26,064 nucleotides of DNA from a virus. Lineage: Duplodnaviria; Caudoviricetes. The notes beneath the pieces are model-generated. The model was not told where the DNA came from, made no database searches, and saw only the letters and a list, made by a program, of their open reading frames with translations. The DNA lies in the IMG/VR virus record IMGVR_UViG_3300038318_000020, positions 1 to 26,064 of that record, one strand, 5' to 3'. Both the position numbers and the translations under genes were made by a program. Shown here in pieces: positions 4,181 to 19,973 of the stretch (the first letter of the stretch is position 1; every line of letters begins with the position of its first letter).

Positions 4181-4402
4181 TTGTTACAACTTGTTACAGA
4201 TATCTGTAACACGATTAAGATTAGCAATATCAATGGTTATAAGATTATTGTTACAGATGTTACAGATATTTTAACTTCTTAGTATTTAATCATAATGAGT
4301 AAGTTCAATATGAATATATTACCTTATATATATATATAGGAAATCTGTAACAAAAACACCTAAAAAACATGTTCAAGTGTAGTAAAATCAATTGTTACAG
4401 AT
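4181..4402. repeat. TGTTACA(GAT) direct and inverted repeats; candidate replication origin
   Basis: Copies at 4182, 4192, 4249, 4258, 4393 (+) and 4202, 4343 (-); perfect 20-bp palindrome 4192-4211; (TA)n tract ~4325-4338; lies just downstream of the primase-helicase. Confidence 0.7.
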
Positions 4403-4428
4403 TTTTTAAAAAAAAGGAGGAGTTTATA

Positions 4429-5520
4429 ATGAAAATTAAAATATGTGCTAGAGATTTACAAAATATGTTAAAAACTGCAAAAGGTTTACAACTTAATAAA
4501 TTAGATATTGATATTCAAAAAGGTTTACAACTTAATAAATTAGATATTGATATTCAAAAAGGTTTATTAATAAAAAACGACACTCTAATCATGAACAACC
4601 TTCATACTCAATTAGAATCAAAATTTTATGTAGATGTAATAGAGCCAGGAGAAACATTGATTCCAGAACCTACACTTAAAATGATAGAAAATTTTAAATC
4701 AGGTTCAATAACAATAACAGAAAATACCATCACTCATGGCAGTAAAGAATTAAAATATATGCCTGGGTCAATAGAGGATTTTTATACAATAAATGATGAA
4801 ATATCTTATGAATTATTTACAGTTAAAGAATCGGAATTAAGCCATTTATTAGAAGCAAATTATGCAACATGTAATGATATAACTAGACCTGCATTACAAG
4901 GAATTGAAATAAGAGAAAACAAATTCATAGCATTGAATGAATATTATTTAAGTGTTAGACAAGGTAACTTCACTTGCAATGAAAAAATTTTAATATCTCC
5001 AGGGGTTTGGAAATTACTTTTAAAAGTATTAGATAAAAAATCAGATAACATTGTTAAAGTATCTTGGGATAAAGACAAATTAGTAAAATTTGAATTTGAA
5101 GATTTTACAGTCAAAGGTAATTTGTATAAAAATCATCTAATGGATGTGAAAAAAATAATACGTGATTATCATTCAACAGAAATAACATTAGAAGCTAATA
5201 AATTAATAGAATCATTAAAATTAATGGACAAGTTGACTAAAGAAGAACAATTAATTTTATTATCATTTACTGATAATAAATTAGAAATAAAAACTAAAAC
5301 GGATATGAATATAATGACAGATGAAATTGAAATATCTAAAATGGGTGAAGATGTTAACATTGCATTTAATATTAAATATTTATTGGCAGTAGTAAATCAA
5401 TATAAGAAAGAAAATGTAAAAGTAGAATTAAAAGGTCCTTATAATTCTATGATATTTAGAGGAGAAAATAAATTAGATTTAGTATTACCTGTACGATTAC
5501 CTGAAGACTATGGGTGGTAA
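4429..5520 (+). CDS. dnaN: phage-encoded DNA polymerase III beta sliding clamp homolog
   Basis: ~363 aa; VIEPGETLIP, TRPALQGI, IAFNIKYLL and C-terminal LVLPVR match beta-clamp motifs; AGGAGG RBS supports ATG 4429 rather than 4369. Confidence 0.82.
   Translation: MKIKICARDLQNMLKTAKGLQLNKLDIDIQKGLQLNKLDIDIQKGLLIKNDTLIMNNLHTQLESKFYVDVIEPGETLIPEPTLKMIENFKSGSITITENTITHGSKELKYMPGSIEDFYTINDEISYELFTVKESELSHLLEANYATCNDITRPALQGIEIRENKFIALNEYYLSVRQGNFTCNEKILISPGVWKLLLKVLDKKSDNIVKVSWDKDKLVKFEFEDFTVKGNLYKNHLMDVKKIIRDYHSTEITLEANKLIESLKLMDKLTKEEQLILLSFTDNKLEIKTKTDMNIMTDEIEISKMGEDVNIAFNIKYLLAVVNQYKKENVKVELKGPYNSMIFRGENKLDLVLPVRLPEDYGW
4479..4566 (+). repeat. perfect 39-bp in-frame tandem duplication (KGLQLNKLDIDIQ x2)
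   Basis: 4479-4517 equals 4518-4556, followed by a third AAAAGGTTTA at 4557-4566. Confidence 0.95.
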
Positions 5521-5991: not shown

Positions 5992-6027
5992 GATAGTAAG
6001 TAAAAAAGATATAGTCGAGCAGGAACG

Positions 6028-6078
6028 GTCAATAACCACACGCTTAAAAGCGTGGGCTTCCTTTTGACGCTTGTGTGA
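6028..6078 (-). mobile_element. minimal IS200/IS605-family end remnant (PATE-like)
   Basis: GTCAATAACC-a-CACGCTT-aa-AAGCGTG-GGCTTC...GTGA; on the - strand reads TCAC|...GAAGCC-hairpin-GGTTATTGAC, resembling fused left and right ends of tnpB/iscB elements; no transposase present. Confidence 0.55.
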
Positions 6079-6086
6079 GAAGAGGT

Positions 6087-6230
6087 TTGAAGATAGAAAA
6101 AACAATTAAAGCGCAGCAGCCAGAAGTTTATAAGCAGTTAAAGAAGGAGAGAAAAGAGAACCTTTCCTCTAATTATATAGAAAAGCTTATGGAAAATAAT
6201 AAAGGCGTAGATGAAAAAAAATGCAGATGA
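6087..6230 (+). CDS. hypothetical protein (47 aa, MKIEKTIKAQQPEVYKQLKK...)
   Basis: Hand-translated TTG..TGA frame; purine-rich upstream region; start codon uncertain. Confidence 0.5.
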   Translation: MKIEKTIKAQQPEVYKQLKKERKENLSSNYIEKLMENNKGVDEKKCR

Positions 6231-6286
6231 GTTATTAATTTATCATATAATCTTTATCTCCTTCATAAAATTATTAAAAGAATTAG

Positions 6287-6313
6287 AGAGCTCTTAATAG
6301 GGCTCTTTTGTTT
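6287..6313 (+). terminator. intrinsic terminator
   Basis: AGAGCTCT-taat-AGGGCTCT stem followed by TTTGTTT. Confidence 0.55.
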
Positions 6314-6344
6314 ATGTTTGTTCGTGACGAGATGAGGTGATCGA

Positions 6345-6662
6345 ATGGCAAGAGACTTTTCTAAAAAGTTTTATAACAGCAAGGAATGGAAGAAGTGTAG
6401 GGAAGGATATAAACAATCAGTCAATGGGTTATGTGAAAGATGTCTAGCTAATGGCAAGTATGTACCAGGGGAAGAAGTACATCATAAAACATATCTAACA
6501 CCAGAGAATATAAACAATCCAGATATAACTTTAAACTGGGATAGATTAGAATTACTTTGTGCGACTTGTCATAGCATTGAGCATAATAGAGTGGAGAAGG
6601 AAGTAGTACGAGAAGGGCTAAGGTTTGACAACTTAGGTAATTTGGTAGAGGATAAAGGATAA
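6345..6662 (+). CDS. packaging-associated HNH endonuclease (HK97 gp74-like)
   Basis: FYNSKEWK, LCERC, EEVHH, LLCATCHSIEH; 105 aa; upstream of terS as in cos phages. Confidence 0.88.
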   Translation: MARDFSKKFYNSKEWKKCREGYKQSVNGLCERCLANGKYVPGEEVHHKTYLTPENINNPDITLNWDRLELLCATCHSIEHNRVEKEVVREGLRFDNLGNLVEDKG

Positions 6663-6665
6663 ATA

Positions 6666-6674
6666 TGATATAAT
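6666..6674 (+). promoter_or_regulatory. extended -10 sigma-A promoter (TGaTATAAT)
   Basis: Consensus match; predicted +1 at G6681 coincides with the start of the structured leader. Confidence 0.7.
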
Positions 6675-6680
6675 ATATAT

Positions 6681-6772
6681 GTGGGATAGACCGACGGGTC
6701 GAAAGCAAGGTATTCCGAACCTTGTTTCCCACTACATATAAAATCGGGCAACACTACGGAGGTGTATTTATT
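6681..6772 (+). ncRNA. structured leader RNA, copy 1 (three-way junction plus RBS hairpin)
   Basis: P1 GTGGGA/TCCCAC, P2 GACC/GGTC, P3 AGCAAGG/CCTTGTT with loop TATTCCGAA; downstream TCGGGCAA and ACACTACGGAGGTGTATTT shared with copy 2. Confidence 0.7.
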
Positions 6773-7660
6773 ATGGATAAAAAAGAAAAGATGAACAAGA
6801 TTGTAGAGTTGTACAAGCAGGGTAAGGGTGCAAGATTAATTTCTAAAGAATTAAATATACCTAAAACAACAGTTCAACGTTATTTGAAAAAATCTAATAT
6901 TGAAATAAGAAAACATAGAAATAAAAAATTAACTGATGCAGAGGTAAAAGAGATAATAGATAAGAAGTATCCTGATTTTCAATATGTAGGTGGCTATACC
7001 AATGGGCATGGCAAAATGGTTATACAATGTAAAACTTGTGGATATAAGTTTGCATATACTACTGAGGTAATAAGACCAAGTAGAGATGTAGATATCCAGT
7101 GTGGTAACTGCAATGAAACAATCAAATTAAGAGATAGATTGACAAACATATTAAATAAATTATATACAGAACAGATGAGAATAATAAATAAAGAGCAAAG
7201 CATGACAATAACTGAGGAAGTGGAAAGTTTAAAGAGAATTGCAAAGAAACACAAATATTATTTAGAATGTGAAGAATGTGGCAGAATGTATTTTACTAAT
7301 AGAAATGATACTAAAACTTGCAGCAAAAGGTGTATCAATAAAAGAAATAATAGAATAAAAGAAATAAATAGGAGAAAAATCATAAAAGAAAACGGAGGGA
7401 TAGATTGGGATATAACATTGGACAAGTTAATTGAAAGAGATAAAAACATATGCTATATATGTAATGGTGAATGTAATAAGGAAGATTATATATTGGATAA
7501 AGATAATAACTTTATAGTTGGTTCTGATTATCCAAGTATAGATCATGTAATACCAATAAGTAAAGGTGGGACTCATACATGGGACAACGTAAGGTTAGCA
7601 CACCATCATTGTAATAGTATAAAAAAGGATAGTATAGTAAATGAAGGTGAAACAGGATAA
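6773..7660 (+). CDS. free-standing HNH homing-endonuclease-like protein (HTH + Zn ribbons + C-terminal HNH)
   Basis: GKGARLISKELNIPKTTVQRYL HTH; several CxxC pairs; SIDHVIPISKGGTHTWDNVRLAHHHCNSIK. GGAGGTG RBS supports ATG 6773. Confidence 0.88.
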   Translation: MDKKEKMNKIVELYKQGKGARLISKELNIPKTTVQRYLKKSNIEIRKHRNKKLTDAEVKEIIDKKYPDFQYVGGYTNGHGKMVIQCKTCGYKFAYTTEVIRPSRDVDIQCGNCNETIKLRDRLTNILNKLYTEQMRIINKEQSMTITEEVESLKRIAKKHKYYLECEECGRMYFTNRNDTKTCSKRCINKRNNRIKEINRRKIIKENGGIDWDITLDKLIERDKNICYICNGECNKEDYILDKDNNFIVGSDYPSIDHVIPISKGGTHTWDNVRLAHHHCNSIKKDSIVNEGETG

Positions 7661-7680
7661 TTGAAGATGATTACATAATT

Positions 7681-7710
7681 AGACAAGGCTATTTGCTTTG
7701 TCTTTTTTAT
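7681..7710 (+). terminator. intrinsic terminator closing the HNH cassette
   Basis: AGACAAGGC-tattt-GCTTTGTCT followed by a T-run. Confidence 0.65.
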
Positions 7711-7734
7711 GCAAGTTAGTAATTGCAACGAGCA

Positions 7735-7830
7735 TAGTCCCCCCTTATTTTTTATTGGGTATCGGCTGAGTGAATACCAACTGTGCACCTTCATTTAACA
7801 CACGGGAGGTTCCCACATAACCCCCACCCT
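7735..7830. other. candidate cos region
   Basis: Non-coding, relatively GC-rich stretch bounded by C-runs between the HNH genes and terS; positional inference only, cut site not identifiable. Confidence 0.3.
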
Positions 7831-7850
7831 AAAAAAGGCAGGTGAAAGAT

Positions 7851-8219
7851 ATGAGTAAAAAGAAAGAAATAGATAAAGATAGATTGGTTAATAACGAAAT
7901 AAATAGACTTACTAAATTATTCAAAGACATAGACAGAAACAAAAGGTTAACTGCTAAAGGACTAATTGAAGAGGCTGCATATATGAAAATAACTCTGCAA
8001 GAATTAAAAGTCGAAATAGATAAACATGGGCCAATAGATGAAATGCCACAAGGCGAATACTCTATCCTTCGAGAACATCCTGCTTTAAAAAGTTATAATA
8101 CTATGGTGCAGAGATATACAAACATTATAGATAAATTAATCAATTTGCATCCTAAAGAATCAGAGGTGGTGGAGGAAGATGACAGTTTCGAAGACTTCAT
8201 TAATTCTAGAGCCGACTAA
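7851..8219 (+). CDS. terS: terminase small subunit (P27-like)
   Basis: LIEEAAYM, EHPALKSYNTM, acidic C-terminus; precedes and overlaps terL. AGGTG RBS favours ATG 7851 over GTG 7842. Confidence 0.8.
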   Translation: MSKKKEIDKDRLVNNEINRLTKLFKDIDRNKRLTAKGLIEEAAYMKITLQELKVEIDKHGPIDEMPQGEYSILREHPALKSYNTMVQRYTNIIDKLINLHPKESEVVEEDDSFEDFINSRAD

Positions 8220-8709
8220 ATATTCACGTACTGATCTTGATATTATATTTGGAAAGACTAAACCAACTGTAAGCAAGAAAGGATTTAGAAAATATCCTAA
8301 TGATTATAATCCTATATTGGAATACTGGGAGCAAATACAAAATGACAAAACTTTAGTAAGCAAAAAAGTATATCAACAATATGAGGAAATAGTAAGATGG
8401 ATTAAAGAAGATGGTTATAAAGAGTGGTACTATTCTCCCGAAAGAGCTAACCATATAATAGAATTTGCTGAAAACTTTTGCTGCCATTCCAAAGGCAAGA
8501 TGGCAGGTAAAAAGGTAGTATTAGAACTTTGGGAAAAAGCATATTTAGCAAGTGTATATGGGTTTATAGACATAGAGGGGAACAGAAAGCACCAAAGGGT
8601 AGTTCTGATTGTAGGGAAAAAGAATGGTAAATCCTTACTGGATTCAATTATGGGTCTTTATGGATTAGTTGGTGATAGTGAAGGCGGACCTGAGATATAT
8701 GCAGTCGCT
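8179..8709 (+). CDS. terL: terminase large subunit, exon 1 (177 codons)
   Basis: LELWEK adenine-binding motif, Walker A VGKKNGKS; ends at EIYAVA at the group I 5' splice site. Confidence 0.9.
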
Positions 8710-8775
8710 AGAATGGTGGCGACTTTAAATCGGGTAAAATCGGTGAAGGCTAAATTTAATATATAGAAACAAACA

Positions 8776-8804
8776 TTGACCAAGCAATATATTAATGATA
8801 TAAT
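8776..8804 (+). promoter_or_regulatory. intron-internal sigma-A promoter for the endonuclease
   Basis: TTGACC-17 bp-TATAAT with extended TG; GAGGTG RBS at 8813-8818. Confidence 0.75.
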
Positions 8805-8824
8805 AATATTGTGAGGTGAATGTA

Positions 8825-9679
8825 ATGAAGATTGTGGGTATTTATAAAATAACAAATTTAATAGATGGAAAAGTGTATATAGGGCAAACAGTAAACTACA
8901 ATAAAAGAAAGAAAAAACATTTAAGCAGTTTGAAAAATGGGAACCATCATAACGAACATCTACAAAGAGCCTTTGATAAGTATGGAGAAGATTCTTTTAA
9001 GATAGAGTTAATTAAAAAATGCAATATTGAAGAACTTGATAAATTAGAAAGATATTACATTAAGGAATTAGACGCTTGTAACCATGACAAAGGTTATAAT
9101 ATGATGTATGGTGGTCAGAGATATAGAAACTTTACAAAGAAAGTAAGGTTAAAAATGAGCGAGAAGGGTAAAGGTAGGAAATTTACAAATGAGCATAAAA
9201 AGAAAATAAGTCTTGCACAAAAAGGTAAAGTTATATCTCAAGAATCTATTGATAAAGCTAATGCGACAAAGAAAAAATTAAGAGTGCATTGTGGTGAAAA
9301 AAATCCAAATACATTAATTAGTGATAATGTTGCAGAAAAAATAATTATAGATTTATTAGAAGGAATTCCCATAAATGATATAGCAGATAAATATCAAGTT
9401 AGCAATGATGTAGTTTACAATCTTATGTATAATAGGTCATATTTGCACATCATGCCAGATGTGAGGGAAGAATTGAAAAACAGGACATCTATTTTACAAA
9501 CAAATAAAATAGAATCTGCTATTAAAATGTATTTACAGGGGCATTCTCAAAATGAGATTGCTAAAACTTTAAACATTAGCAGAAATACATTGAGAAGAGA
9601 ATTAAAAACTAGGAATATAAACCCACAAATAAATGTTAATCAATATGTTAAACAAGCTAATACCGAGGTAATCTTATAG
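8825..9679 (+). CDS. intron-encoded GIY-YIG homing endonuclease (NUMOD3 repeats, C-terminal HTHs)
   Basis: GIYKITN...VYIGQT, HHNEHLQRAFDKYG, LERYYI, GYN; EHKKKISLAQKG NUMOD3-like; SQNEIAKTLNISRNTLRR HTH. Confidence 0.92.
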   Translation: MKIVGIYKITNLIDGKVYIGQTVNYNKRKKKHLSSLKNGNHHNEHLQRAFDKYGEDSFKIELIKKCNIEELDKLERYYIKELDACNHDKGYNMMYGGQRYRNFTKKVRLKMSEKGKGRKFTNEHKKKISLAQKGKVISQESIDKANATKKKLRVHCGEKNPNTLISDNVAEKIIIDLLEGIPINDIADKYQVSNDVVYNLMYNRSYLHIMPDVREELKNRTSILQTNKIESAIKMYLQGHSQNEIAKTLNISRNTLRRELKTRNINPQINVNQYVKQANTEVIL

Positions 9680-9877
9680 ATTGCTAAAGGCTATGAGACA
9701 CCGTAACGCGTAGAGGATGAATAGATATAATTCCTCCAAGAGTGCCCGGCAACCAATAAAGGTTATCTTTTTTATTGGTTGAAAATGTACGCTAAACTGA
9801 GTTGGAAATGACCAACTAATGAGAATGAGGGAAACCTCCAGAGCATAGGATAAAAAGCCTATGGGTAATACTAATTG

Positions 9878-11134
9878 ACTAAGAAAGACCAAGCCAAAAT
9901 AGTATGGCAAGAAGCCAAGAGAATGGTTAATAAATCCCCTACCCTCAAAAAAAGAATAAGAACATTAGTAGGGGAGATTGATTCTGATTTTAATGATGGA
10001 GTATTTAAGGCATTAGCTTCTGATAGTGATAGCCTTGACGGACTAAACATCCATGTAGTAATAATGGATGAATGGCATCAGTGGAAAAATGGCAGAGCAT
10101 TATATGACATAATGGCTGATGGTATAACAGCAAGGGAACAGCCATTGATTATTATGACTTCTACTGCTGGGACTATTAGAGAAGATATATTTGATGAAAT
10201 ATATGAAGAGGCGGAAATACAATTTAATAATATGAAATTAGGAAACGAGGTTGATGATAGAACCTTGTTTTTTATTTATGAACTTGATAAAAAGGCTGAA
10301 TGGTGGGATGCAAATAATTGGATTAAGGCTAATCCAGGTTTAGGTACTATCAAGAAATTAAGAGCATTACAAGATAAAGCTAAAAGAGTGGCCGACAATC
10401 CAAAACTAGAGAAGAATTTTGTATGTAAAGAATTTAATATAAGAGAAACAAGTTCAGAATCATGGCTACCGTTTGAAGTCTTAAATAATACAGCTACATT
10501 TGATATAGAAAAATTAAAACCTAGGTATTGTGTTGCAGGAATTGACCTTGGAGCAACCACAGACTTAACTTGCGCAACGATAATATTTAGAGTACCTGAT
10601 GATCCGATTCTGTATGTGAAACAGATGTATTGGTTACCAGGTGATTTATTAGAAAAGAGAACAAGAGAAGATAAAATACCATATTCTACATGGTTAGACG
10701 ATGGCCTATTAAGAGTAAGTGAAGGTAATAAAGTTAATTACAAAGATGTTACGAAGTGGCTTTTGGAAGTCCAAAATGATATGGATATTTATATATTCAA
10801 GATTGGTTATGATAGTTGGAGTTCAACTTATTTGATAGATGAACTAGAACAGAATTTTGGAAAGATAACTGAAGCAGTCGTTCAAGGTGCAAAGACTTTT
10901 TCTAACCCTTTAAAGAGAGTAGAGGCAGAATTAGAAGCTAAAAGAATAAATTATGGAAACAACCCAATTTTCAAATGGAACCTCTCGAACAGTGCGATTA
11001 GCGTTGACAGGAATGACAATATTGCATTGGTTAAAACAAGTAATCCAAGACGTAGGATTGATGGTGTTGCCTCGTTCATGGATGCCTACATTGTGCTCGA
11101 AAGAAATTACCAAGAATATATGAATATAATATAG
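9878..11134 (+). CDS. terL: terminase large subunit, exon 2 (spliced protein 595 aa)
   Basis: TKKDQA, Walker B VIMDE, coupling motif TSTAG, WIKANPGLG, nuclease GIDLG and RIDG. Confidence 0.92.
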   Translation, partial: TKKDQAKIVWQEAKRMVNKSPTLKKRIRTLVGEIDSDFNDGVFKALASDSDSLDGLNIHVVIMDEWHQWKNGRALYDIMADGITAREQPLIIMTSTAGTIREDIFDEIYEEAEIQFNNMKLGNEVDDRTLFFIYELDKKAEWWDANNWIKANPGLGTIKKLRALQDKAKRVADNPKLEKNFVCKEFNIRETSSESWLPFEVLNNTATFDIEKLKPRYCVAGIDLGATTDLTCATIIFRVPDDPILYVKQMYWLPGDLLEKRTREDKIPYSTWLDDGLLRVSEGNKVNYKDVTKWLLEVQNDMDIYIFKIGYDSWSSTYLIDELEQNFGKITEAVVQGAKTFSNPLKRVEAELEAKRINYGNNPIFKWNLSNSAISVDRNDNIALVKTSNPRRRIDGVASFMDAYIVLERNYQEYMNII

Positions 11135-11139
11135 AATTA

Positions 11140-11148
11140 TGATATAAT
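11140..11148 (+). promoter_or_regulatory. extended -10 sigma-A promoter (TGaTATAAT)
   Basis: Same motif and the same 7-nt distance to the leader's G (11155) as at 6666. Confidence 0.7.
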
Positions 11149-11152
11149 TTAT

Positions 11153-11270
11153 ATGTAGGATAGTTATGGACTAGCTACCCATAATGACAAGAAGGAAGCC
11201 CGAACCTTCTTCCTACATACATAAAATTAAACATTCGGGCAAGCTAAACACTATCGGAGGTGTATTTGTT
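11153..11270 (+). ncRNA. structured leader RNA, copy 2
   Basis: P1 ATGTAGGA/TCCTACAT, P2 TTATGG/CCATAA, P3 AGAAGG/CCTTCT with loop AAGCCCGAA complementary to TTCGGGC 11234-11240; ACACTATCGGAGGTGTATTT before the ATG. Confidence 0.72.
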
Positions 11271-11738
11271 ATGGCTAAAAAGATAAAAGTAAAATGCAAA
11301 ATAGACGGGAGTATATGGATGGCGAAAGGTAATCATTTATTAAATGGACATGGATGCCCAGCGTGTAGTGAAAGCAAAGGTGAAAAGATGATTAGAAAGT
11401 ATTTAAGGAAAAAACATATTAAATATAGAAGTCAGTATAAGATGGCAAAATATAAAAATGAGCGTTCATTACCATTTGATTTTGCAATATTTAATAATAG
11501 TAAATTGATAGCATTAATGGAATATCAAGGAATACAACATTATGAACCCATAGAATATTTCGGTGGAGAGAAGATGTTTAAATATCAAAGAGAAAATGAC
11601 AACATAAAAAGAAATTATTGCAAAATAAATGATATACCATTAATAGAAATACCATATACTGTAGATAATATTGAAGGATATTTAGACAAACAATTGTCAG
11701 AATTAGATAAATCAATACGATTAGCACTTACTAGATAG
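11271..11738 (+). CDS. Vsr/DUF559/DUF2726-like PD-(D/E)xK endonuclease, possibly N-terminally shortened
   Basis: GCPACSESKGE, LPFDF, EYQGIQHY, DNIKRNYC, LIEIPY; GGAGGTG RBS supports ATG 11271. Confidence 0.8.
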   Translation: MAKKIKVKCKIDGSIWMAKGNHLLNGHGCPACSESKGEKMIRKYLRKKHIKYRSQYKMAKYKNERSLPFDFAIFNNSKLIALMEYQGIQHYEPIEYFGGEKMFKYQRENDNIKRNYCKINDIPLIEIPYTVDNIEGYLDKQLSELDKSIRLALTR

Positions 11739-11753
11739 TAGGTGCTTTTATTA
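11723..11753 (+). terminator. intrinsic terminator
   Basis: AGCACTTACT-agat-AGTAGGTGCT followed by TTTATT. Confidence 0.7.
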
Positions 11754-11777
11754 TGTTTAATTTAAGGAGGTGAGTAC

Positions 11778-12932
11778 TTGGGATTATTAAATAAAATAAA
11801 AAGCACTTTTAGCAATGCGACAAAAGTTAGTAGAGTAAAAATGATAACCGATAGAGGAAATGGCTTTTATTCATGGGATGGCAAACTTTATAAAAGTGAT
11901 ATAGTAAGAGCTTGTATACGGCCACGAGTAAAGGCAATAGGTAAACTAATACCTAAACATATAAGGAATGGCCCTGATGGATTGAAAATAAATCCAGAAC
12001 CATATATGAGGTTTTTATTAACAGAGCCTAATCCATATATGAGTGGTCAAATGCTACAAGAAAAAGTTGCAAACCAATTGGCATTAAATAGTAATGCTTT
12101 TATATTAATTATTAAAGATGAAAATGGCTATCCTATAGAACTTTACCCTGTACCATGTTTAACAGCTGAAGCTATATATGATAAATCAGGGAATTTGTAT
12201 TTAAAATTTTATTACAGAAATGGTAGAACAGGTATATTCCCTTATTCTGACATAATTCATTTAAGAGATGATTATAACGATAATGATATATTTGGGGATC
12301 CTCCAGGTGAAGCTTTAACAAGTTTAATGGAAGTTATAGGGACAATAGATCAGGGTATGGTAAAGGCAATAAAAAATAGTGGTGTAATTAGATGGTTATT
12401 GCAATTTCAACAATCTCTAAGGCCAGAGGATATAGAAAAGAATGTTAAACAGTTTGCGGATACTTATTTAAGTATAGAATCAGATACATTTGGTGTTGCT
12501 GGTGTAGATGCAAAAGCAGATGCCAAACAAATAGAGCCGACAGATTATGTACCGAATGCAGCTCAAACTGATAGAACAACAGAAAGGATATATTCATTTT
12601 TCAACACTAACAAGAAGATAGTCCAATCTAGTTACAATGAAGATGAATGGATAAGCTATTATGAAGCAAGGATTGAACCTGATGCATTGCAAATGGCTAA
12701 TGAATATACAAGGAAGTTATTTACACGTAGGGAAAGAGGGTTTGGTAATAAAATCATATTTGAAAGTTCTAATTTAAACTTTGCTAGTATGCAAACTAAA
12801 CTAAATCTAGTCCAATATGTAGATAGAGGAATCATGAATCCTAATGAAGTAAGAGAAATACTCAATATGGCACCAAGAGAAGGCGGAGACGAATATATCC
12901 GTAGACTTGATACTAGACCAGCAGATGAGTAG
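11778..12932 (+). CDS. HK97-family portal protein
   Basis: VRACI, PNPYMS, NAFILI, DIIHLR, GIMNPNEVREILNM; position after terL. Confidence 0.92.
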   Translation: MGLLNKIKSTFSNATKVSRVKMITDRGNGFYSWDGKLYKSDIVRACIRPRVKAIGKLIPKHIRNGPDGLKINPEPYMRFLLTEPNPYMSGQMLQEKVANQLALNSNAFILIIKDENGYPIELYPVPCLTAEAIYDKSGNLYLKFYYRNGRTGIFPYSDIIHLRDDYNDNDIFGDPPGEALTSLMEVIGTIDQGMVKAIKNSGVIRWLLQFQQSLRPEDIEKNVKQFADTYLSIESDTFGVAGVDAKADAKQIEPTDYVPNAAQTDRTTERIYSFFNTNKKIVQSSYNEDEWISYYEARIEPDALQMANEYTRKLFTRRERGFGNKIIFESSNLNFASMQTKLNLVQYVDRGIMNPNEVREILNMAPREGGDEYIRRLDTRPADE

Positions 12933-18805: not shown

Positions 18806-18835
18806 AAAAGCCCACTATTTAGAAGTAGGCTTTTT
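18806..18835 (-). terminator. terminator after the RHH gene
   Basis: AAAAGCCCACT...AGTAGGCTTTT inverted repeat with T-runs in both directions. Confidence 0.6.
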
Positions 18836-18979
18836 GTATTCATCTAAAACTAATTCTATACCTCTATCTAGCAATCTAGACATTGGTATCATAGTTTCTT
18901 TAGATAGTTTTTTTAATTGTTGGAATAATTTTTTGTCAACAGCATTACCTATTCTTATTCTATTTTTTAAGTCAGACAT
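18815..18979 (-). CDS. ribbon-helix-helix DNA-binding protein (54 aa; absent from the ORF track)
   Basis: MSDLKNRIRIGNAVDKKLFQQLKKLSKETMIPMSRLLDRGIELVLDEYKKPTSK; AGGAGG RBS at 18987-18992; beta-helix-helix pattern. Confidence 0.85.
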   Translation of the reverse strand: MSDLKNRIRIGNAVDKKLFQQLKKLSKETMIPMSRLLDRGIELVLDEYKKPTSK

Positions 18980-18998
18980 AATGGCACCTCCTATTATT

Positions 18999-19058
18999 CT
19001 ATATTATACTACTTACTTAATATACTTGCAACTTATAGCAGTTTATAGTATAATATAG
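18999..19058. promoter_or_regulatory. symmetric bidirectional promoter sharing one palindromic -35
   Basis: TTGCAA 19026-19031 is 17 bp from TATAAT on both strands (19049-19054 +, 19003-19008 -); 13-bp inverted repeat 18999-19011/19046-19058. Confidence 0.8.
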
Positions 19059-19076
19059 TAAAGGGGGAAGAAAAGA

Positions 19077-19973
19077 ATGGAGTACAAAAGAGAATTAATA
19101 GAAAATAAAATGGTAGTTTATGCTATCACTAATAAAATCAATGGTAAAAAGTATATAGGAATTACAACTAATTCATTTGCAGAAAGGTATCCGCATGGAA
19201 TAAGAGCACATCATAACCCACATTTGAGAAATTCAGTTAAAAAATATGGACAAGAGAATTTTGAAGTAATGCTACTAGAAAAGAAAGTAGAAAATATGGA
19301 AACTTTATGTAAGCTAGAAATGAAATATATAGAAAAATATGATACTTGTAATGCGGACAAGGGTTATAATAAATCCTTGGGCGGTCTTGGGGTAAGGCAA
19401 ACAGAAAGAAGCGAAGAACATTGCAGGAACATTAGTATAGCTAAAAAGAAAATAGGTTTAAATACACTAACTAGAATGACACCAGAGGCAATAAAAAAGA
19501 GAAACGCTAAAATAAGTAAAGCTATGAAAGGTAAAAATAATCCTGCATGGCGTGGAGGCGTAAGTTATAAAAGAAAGCTTAAGGGGTTGTCTAAAGAAGA
19601 AGGGTATAAAATAGATGGCATAAGCCTCAGCACACGCGAAAAATTGAGACAAGCATCATTAGGTGAAAATAACCCTATGTATGGAAAAAATATCAAGGAT
19701 TATATGACGGAAGAAGAATACGAGGAATGGAAAATCAAAGTTGCTAATCCAGGGGCTAAAAATGGAATGGCAAGGAAGGCAGTAATTATATACAAAAACC
19801 AAAAATACGAATTTGACTATGCACAAGAAGGCATAGACTACTTTAAGAACAAAGGTGAGCACATAACAAGATATTGGTTTTACAATGGGGTTACAGAAAA
19901 ATACAAGGATAAGTTTCAATTTGTTGGTTATATAGAAGATTATGAGGAATACATAAAGGCATTGGCTAAATAG
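19077..19973 (+). CDS. free-standing GIY-YIG endonuclease with NUMOD3-like repeats
   Basis: VVYAITNKINGKKYIGIT, HNPHLRNSVKKYG, LEMKYI, GYN; GKNNPAW and GENNPMYGK motifs. Confidence 0.9.
   Translation: MEYKRELIENKMVVYAITNKINGKKYIGITTNSFAERYPHGIRAHHNPHLRNSVKKYGQENFEVMLLEKKVENMETLCKLEMKYIEKYDTCNADKGYNKSLGGLGVRQTERSEEHCRNISIAKKKIGLNTLTRMTPEAIKKRNAKISKAMKGKNNPAWRGGVSYKRKLKGLSKEEGYKIDGISLSTREKLRQASLGENNPMYGKNIKDYMTEEEYEEWKIKVANPGAKNGMARKAVIIYKNQKYEFDYAQEGIDYFKNKGEHITRYWFYNGVTEKYKDKFQFVGYIEDYEEYIKALAK

Follow-up and report, generated by a model that had tools for sequence, protein, structure and literature searches.

What does the structured leader RNA do that lies between the terminase large-subunit gene (end 11134) and a 155-aa endonuclease gene, itself followed by the portal gene, in a 26-kb phage contig (IMG/VR record IMGVR_UViG_3300038318_000020; the window, meaning the whole stretch of 26,064 nucleotides analysed here)? 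The leader is built on a three-way junction and occurs twice in the window, from 11152 onward (copy 2) and at 6666–6775 (copy 1). A preliminary description of this DNA had called copy 2 the second copy of a nuclease leader, and this is borne out: a model built from the family, both copies included, gave just two matches in the window, at 72.6 and 68.4 bits with the next at 11.5, and copy 1 has the same design.

All features discussed here lie on the plus strand. Copy 2 begins with an extended -10 promoter-like site (TG-n-TATAAT, 11140–11148; predicted start at about 11154–11155), which stands upstream of P1. The junction (11152–11219) consists of P1 (11152–11160/11211–11219, nine Watson-Crick pairs), P2 (11164–11169/11179–11184 plus a G-U pair at 11163/11185, spanning 11163–11185) and P3 (11190–11195/11205–11210), connected by UA between P1 and P2 and by GACA (11186–11189) between P2 and P3. 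P2 is closed by loop L2 (11170–11178), whose self-complementary hexamer TAGCTA (11172–11177) is predicted to self-kiss (self-duplex -6.5 kcal/mol), and P3 by loop L3 (11196–11204), which carries an anti-Shine-Dalgarno-like guide, GCCCGAA (11198–11204). Downstream lie T1 (11234–11240), the putative decoy target of L3, with 7 pairs in copy 2 and an L3-T1 duplex of -13.2 kcal/mol, and the P4 hairpin (ACAC/GTGT, 11248–11263), which has the second target T2 (TCGG, 11254–11257) in its loop and contains the Shine-Dalgarno GGAGG (11256–11260). The free-standing endonuclease gene follows (11271–11738), with a terminator-like hairpin, found by consensus scan, at the end of the cassette (11723–11746). 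Copy 1 repeats the arrangement with a GACG tetraloop as L2, ATTCCGA in L3 (6712–6718), T1 at 6744–6748 and P4 at 6751–6765, in front of an HNH endonuclease gene (6773–7660; Pfam HNH, E=7e-8). The preliminary description had the stems, letters and coordinates of copy 2 correct throughout, including the exact complementarity of the L3 guide to TTCGGGC at 11234–11240 (expected by chance within 50 nt at about 4e-4 to 1e-3) and the positional overlap of TCGG with the GGAGG ribosome-binding site; it missed the self-complementary P2 loop, the P4 hairpin that displays the Shine-Dalgarno and the link to the Rfam family int-alpA described below.

The leader is almost certainly a structured, int-alpA-like RNA. 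The stretch 11154–11220 gave this junction on folding (-18.1 kcal/mol, z = -3.3, with 0/200 shuffles as good), and the longer stretch 11154–11275, taken as a nested fold, was ordinary (z = -0.7). From an alignment of 84 members of the family, RNAalifold recovered the junction unaided, with 14 pairs of which 10 had compensatory changes, and the pair counts exceeded those of 500/500 shuffles, which ignore relatedness, as well as those of slid controls. Adding P4 and the L3-T2 helix gave a covariation score of 0.53, as compared to 0.21 in shuffles that likewise ignore relatedness. P4 was paired in 84% of cells, with changes on both sides at all four of its pairs; the L3-T2 helix was paired in only 62% on the raw, unfitted MAFFT alignment, which has visible register shifts at that place. 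G-U pairs are tolerated in the stems of the family, and its junction letters (UA / GA(C)A) are invariant. Furthermore, an independent public contig spanning 11136–11277 differs at 2/142 positions, 11199 (C>T) and 11239 (G>A). These two bases pair with each other in the L3-T1 helix and so amount to one compensatory pair; locus L014 has the identical swap.

To collect the family, sequence patterns were run against viral, metagenome and genome collections, which yielded at least 435 distinct matches; 109 of those listed were parsed as a junction, by criteria blind to the L2 sequence and to the targets, and 95 members were left at <85% identity. Matches that were not parsed (326/435 pattern matches, 20/106 promoter-free matches and 10/30 canonical int-alpA loci) stand outside all counts, and true members occur among them, for example L032, L034, L059, L099 and L152. 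At least about 170 distinct phage-type loci were found. An early impression that the element always has its own extended -10 promoter proved to be an artefact of the search pattern: among 86 members found by promoter-free patterns, 30 had an extended -10, 11 had a -10-like site and 45 had none. The promoter is thus optional in the family. Three promoterless members (L642, L701 and L716) lie just 3' of tRNA-Gln or tRNA-Lys genes, and six other loci (L025, L028, L001, L280, L298 and L603) retain an intact junction and have lost T1, T2 or the gene, apparently as decaying cassettes. Searching for homologs of the nuclease returned only two close loci with a leader, blastn against named phages gave only promoter-like or chance pieces (the three inspected were non-members), and model R1 matched 2/151 and 1/151 bacterial genomes, each count including the centre genome. 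Parts of the leader stretch occur in 15 RNA runs, as assembled contigs.

At first the motif appeared to be uncatalogued, as the Rfam scan gave no match in the window: neither copy matched int-alpA (RF02996) at its gathering cut-off of 35.8 bits, nor was there a match at E<=10 on 6000–12000 or when int-alpA was searched against the phage's own genome. This view was overturned by the relatives, since 8/40 family loci pass the int-alpA cut-off and four more score 28.6–32.8 bits; model R1 scores the same eight loci at 39.7–60.2 bits, and six of the eight are outside its training set. The two groups share the three-stem topology, the UAG and CGAAAA junctions, the CC core of L3 and a 3' tail that corresponds to T1, and canonical int-alpA members also have two targets for L3 and an L2 that is either GACG or a palindrome. 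The endonuclease branch differs in its P1 consensus, in a P2 of up to 7 bp and in the phage endonuclease genes downstream; canonical int-alpA lies between an integrase gene and an uncharacterised gene followed by AlpA, whereas the order in the window is terminase, endonuclease, portal. Taken together, the sequences identify the window element as a divergent, endonuclease-linked branch of int-alpA, with the window copy itself not filed as a formal member. The family is catalogued, and copy 2 has a weakened Shine-Dalgarno target and a shortened gene.

Canonical int-alpA was present in 36/151 sampled genomes, all of one Gram-negative phylum, that of a Rickettsia-labelled genome. All 20 canonical loci that could be parsed, out of 30, have GACG or a palindrome as L2, and both of their targets beat swapped controls. 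Around 16 canonical loci, with 33/128 flanking ORFs scanned, an integrase was found in 10 and AlpA in 3; at two loci, ParE-family toxin-antitoxin genes lie just upstream (L732, 1211–1465; L737, 1204–1458). The Rfam model has 71 positions, is typed 'Gene; sRNA' and ends just after T1, before P4 and T2, with T1 unpaired; because covariance models cannot show pseudoknots, its curators may still have drawn the L3-T1 pairing. The motif is reportedly due to Weinberg et al. 2017. A term search of the main text of that paper did not return the name int-alpA, which appears elsewhere in two papers, in one as a table entry and in the other as a gene order, and no description of a mechanism for these leaders was found in the freely accessible literature, the scope of the search excluding subscription papers. 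Nor is int-alpA listed in the table of a review on RNA oligomers that appeared in 2026 (PMC12990946, accessible part). Fremin et al. 2023 list candidates from IMG/VR upstream of mixed HNH/GIY-YIG genes (DNAVirus_8080, 8377, 1290 and 8282; PMC10690425), which we compared by their listing, and for which the accessible text gives no mechanism; their alignments, or the supplement of Weinberg 2017, may already depict the pseudoknot or the endonuclease branch.

How L3 is used emerges from comparison across the family. Two separate downstream sites scoring >=11 against L3 were present in 90/95 members, versus 40% when loops were swapped and 23% when tails were shuffled. Among the 90 members with an ORF, own loops outscored swapped ones both in the T1 window (mean 15.2 vs 9.9) and in the Shine-Dalgarno window (13.8 vs 11.0), in each case above all 10,000 permutations, in a test that is slightly circular because the edge of the T1 window is set by the T2 call. 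Held-out members from the promoter-free scans had T1 in 57/60 and T2 in 56/60 cases. Loop and targets therefore covary across homologs, the check that the preliminary description had proposed, and its two alternative targets, a decoy and the ribosome-binding site, are upheld by this covariation at both T1 and the Shine-Dalgarno; the switching between them that it suggested is something we infer.

The two targets are unlike in their relation to the ribosome. T2 coincides with the Shine-Dalgarno at a fixed distance from the start codon, and T1 is a poor Shine-Dalgarno where T2 is a good one: the anti-Shine-Dalgarno duplex is -4.3 kcal/mol at T1 vs -10.2 kcal/mol at T2, and it pairs better at T2 in 77/84 members with both targets. 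In 62/84 members T2 sits within a hairpin of at least four Watson-Crick pairs, as compared to 29 expected. As a partner for L3, T1 is the stronger in 60 of these 84 members and T2 in 16, with an energy gap of only about 1 kcal/mol in an estimate that ignores loop geometry. The targets are always in cis, within about 45 nt at most. On these comparisons, L3 very probably uses both T1 and T2, and it is highly likely that the element controls translation. In copy 2, the L3-T2 duplex has only 4 pairs (-5.8 kcal/mol) against a family average of about 6 and 5–6 in the L014-type allele; the compensatory change at 11199/11239 brought T1 to 7 pairs, had no possible counterpart in the Shine-Dalgarno and left T2 at 4, and the off state of this copy may accordingly be weak. 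A further, c4-like pairing of L2 with AGCTA right after T1 was rejected, as this site is unchanged in L035 despite a different L2 and does not covary with it.

L2 follows a different rule. In the 95 members, it is a GACG tetraloop in 17, a palindrome of at least four bases in 70, a palindrome including the closing pair in one and neither in 7. Palindromes of at least four bases thus occur in 70/78 non-GACG loops, as compared to 26.5 in shuffles (maximum 39), and in 1/95 L3 loops; they have nine different central tetramers, and P2 with its loop forms nearly a DNA palindrome. Two central loop bases that are complementary to each other cannot pair inside their own hairpin. Because the palindrome is kept across nine tetramers or replaced by GACG, in the phage and in the canonical branch, selection for intermolecular pairing is suggested, and L2 probably dimerises. 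Retroviral dimerisation elements offer a parallel: in murine retroviruses, homodimers arise when GACG loops kiss through 2 bp, and palindromic loops of 6 nt likewise self-kiss in HIV-1 and oskar, according to the accessible parts of PMC7357161 and PMC516450. As in the HIV-1 DIS and the GACG hairpins of MoMuLV/MoMuSV, the leader presents a purine-flanked 6-nt palindromic loop or a GACG tetraloop on a hairpin, and a self-complementary or GACG loop is retained under sequence change. In HIV-1 the dimer state is linked to pairing around the start codon (PMC7357161, accessible part). The retroviral loops are, however, unrelated elements of animal viruses, whereas here the loop would act in a bacterial-phage mRNA leader, its dimerisation being predicted from sequence.

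The genes behind the leader are mobile nucleases in most cases. Homing-endonuclease-type domains were found in 81/89 downstream ORFs, 49 by Pfam (16 GIY-YIG, 21 HNH and 12 associated modules) and 32 more by PHROGs; because their folds are unrelated, feedback by the encoded protein is unlikely. The other eight are one replication-initiator-like ORF (L543, 327–1160, plus strand), for which a leader would fit copy-number feedback, one glycosyltransferase ORF (L442, 1007–1840, plus strand), one degenerate ORF and five with no match. A same-strand gene lies within 150 nt upstream in 77/95 members, including 37/44 promoterless ones, and a scan of 59 upstream ORFs identified 20, of which 15 are head, packaging or tail genes. 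In copy 2, the product of 11271–11738 matches phrog_559 (labelled HNH endonuclease) and phrog_9084 (homing endonuclease), with weak DUF2726/DUF4379 hits, and has what we take to be a PD-(D/E)XK-like motif. Compared with a 386-aa zinc-ribbon-repeat nuclease in L035, this ORF is shortened in frame, with the joint at a short AAAAG repeat (11271–11285), where public contigs either show the long form or end; the short form may reflect either a true deletion or a collapse in the assembly.

Other parts of the window carry further features. An insertion at 8767–9874 splits the terminase large-subunit gene and encodes a GIY-YIG/NUMOD3/HTH gene (8816–9679) with a strong promoter-like site at 8776–8804; we presume a resemblance to a group I intron, for which the Rfam scan gave no match. 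A third free-standing GIY-YIG/NUMOD3 gene, at 18815–19973, has no leader and lies head-to-head with a small ribbon-helix-helix gene, through which protein-based control in place of a leader is possible. An exact 39-nt tandem duplication (4479–4556) lies within the 383-aa gene at 4369–5520.

Sequence comparison shows that the leader has the three-way junction and P4, that L3 matches two targets, that the P2 loop is a palindrome or GACG, and that the element stands ahead of endonuclease genes in phages; that these pairings occur in the cell, that dimers form, and that kissing is coupled to the choice between T1 and T2, and in which direction, are what we infer from it. Our best explanation, put forward tentatively, is an int-alpA-type translational switch: the monomer would permit translation, and transcripts that kiss through the P2 loop would shut it off. 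In a lone transcript, L3 would pair with T1, which is transcribed earlier and binds it more strongly, and the weak 4-bp Shine-Dalgarno hairpin would open for the ribosome. At high RNA concentration, L2-L2 kissing would rearrange the fold or supply a second L3, either of which would let L3 capture T2 and lock the Shine-Dalgarno. Nuclease output would then be capped whatever promoter the cassette lands behind, often that of a strong late head or tail operon. For the separate parts of this reading, we lean slightly towards the dimer state as the driver of the switch, and if it is, off is the more plausible direction.

The sign could also be reversed, with the monomer locking its own Shine-Dalgarno through L3-T2 and the dimer shifting L3 to the decoy, so that the nuclease is made only when many genome copies supply many transcripts, as late in lytic growth. 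T4 homing endonucleases are indeed off early and translated late (PMC2988022, accessible part), and the shortest P1-to-T1 distance in the family, 12–13 nt counted from the start of the P1 3' strand, is tight for a cis pseudoknot across P1 and P3. For the offset of T1, rho is 0.46 with P2 length as compared to 0.06 with P3 length, but this correlation is confounded, since 14/24 members with a long P2 have short linkers and those with long linkers seemingly form one clade, on which grounds linker length was discarded as a clue to cis or trans pairing. Together with the earlier transcription of T1 and its stronger pairing in 60/84 members, this makes the reversed sign rather unlikely, yet a serious alternative.

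Just as unlikely, in our estimate, and just as serious an alternative, is an attenuator acting purely in cis, where L3 would divide its time between T1 and T2 to set a fixed low rate, or would be tipped by a protein or small ligand bound at the conserved UA/GA(C)A junction, and L2 would serve another purpose (stability or decay) or none. The invariant junction letters, the closeness of the T1 and T2 energies and the 7/95 L2 loops that lack a clear self-kissing motif are all compatible with such a device, which, however, leaves unexplained why both branches keep a palindrome over nine tetramers or swap it for GACG.

Two copies in one contig raise the question of action in trans, and the preliminary description had suggested that they might cross-regulate. 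The C4 antisense RNAs of P1/P7 and the CI RNA of P4 are small multi-stem phage RNAs whose loops match doubled targets near ribosome-binding sites and which have specificity alleles. By analogy, the junction could be cut or terminated in the AU-rich linker, accumulate and dock on a full-length mRNA, possibly via L2, covering T2, including that of the other copy. Such a role would suit the Rfam model, which stops just after T1 and is typed as an sRNA, and cross duplexes equal or exceed the own ones: the copy-1 loop on copy-2 T2 gives -7.4 kcal/mol and the copy-2 loop on copy-1 T1 -12.5 kcal/mol. Copy-1 T1 differs from that of the near-identical locus L581 by one base (6748), which perfects a 6-bp match to the copy-2 loop, but the change is also a tolerated U-G wobble for copy 1's own loop, and CCGA is the commonest L3 allele in the family. 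Unlike in C4 and CI, one loop here has the targets and the other is self-complementary; Rfam C4 has no match in the window, the targets are consistently close by in cis, and the L2 loops of the two copies (GACG and UAGCUA) are incompatible, precluding mutual kissing. Cross-talk between the copies is thus possible, being allowed by the loop-target energies and not by the L2 loops, and an antisense RNA of this kind, a hypothetical form here, is improbable as the main mode of action. Finally, a self-cleaving ribozyme or a DNA-level signal, such as inverted repeats for insertion or protein binding, is very improbable, for although three promoterless members follow tRNA genes and P2 with its loop is close to a DNA palindrome, no ribozyme or riboswitch family in Rfam matched the window or 40 member loci, G-U pairs are tolerated in the stems, the palindrome varies freely in sequence and T2 keeps its place on the Shine-Dalgarno relative to the start codon.

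The monomer-on, dimer-off switch would place the leader beside known controls of phage homing endonucleases. The T-even genes for I-TevI/II/III, segB and Aeh1 mobE have RBS-sequestering hairpins (PMC2988022, accessible part), and share with the leader an RNA structure across the Shine-Dalgarno of such a gene. According to the same text, the T-even hairpins are simple, and a late promoter within the structure relieves them, whereas here the promoter-like site stands upstream of P1. In T-even phages the Shine-Dalgarno is buried in a stable stem, and late transcripts lack the 5' arm of that stem; here it is found in a 4-bp hairpin and its loop, and the leader is predicted to differ in its loop-loop masking of the Shine-Dalgarno, its decoy and its self-kissing loop.

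These results provide a testable mechanism for a catalogued orphan RNA that is found in 36/151 sampled genomes of one Gram-negative phylum and at about 170 phage-type loci or more. If self-kissing drives the switch, the leader would be a case of natural mRNA regulation in bacteria set off by homodimerisation of the RNA, of which no described example was found in the literature searched. In a wider reading, which we hold no more than tentatively, int-alpA-class leaders might be riboswitch-like elements whose ligand is their own second copy, with L2-L2 kissing counting transcripts, and through them genome copies or promoter strength, and flipping an anti-Shine-Dalgarno loop from decoy to ribosome site or back; they would then be protein-free, allele-coded copy-number sensors for phage homing endonucleases and integrase-alpA islands. 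Since their L2 and L3 codes are interchangeable, such leaders would be ready-to-use orthogonal parts in synthetic gene control, and the switch, if true, would account for the silence of toxic mobile nucleases that have inserted into late operons with strong transcription.
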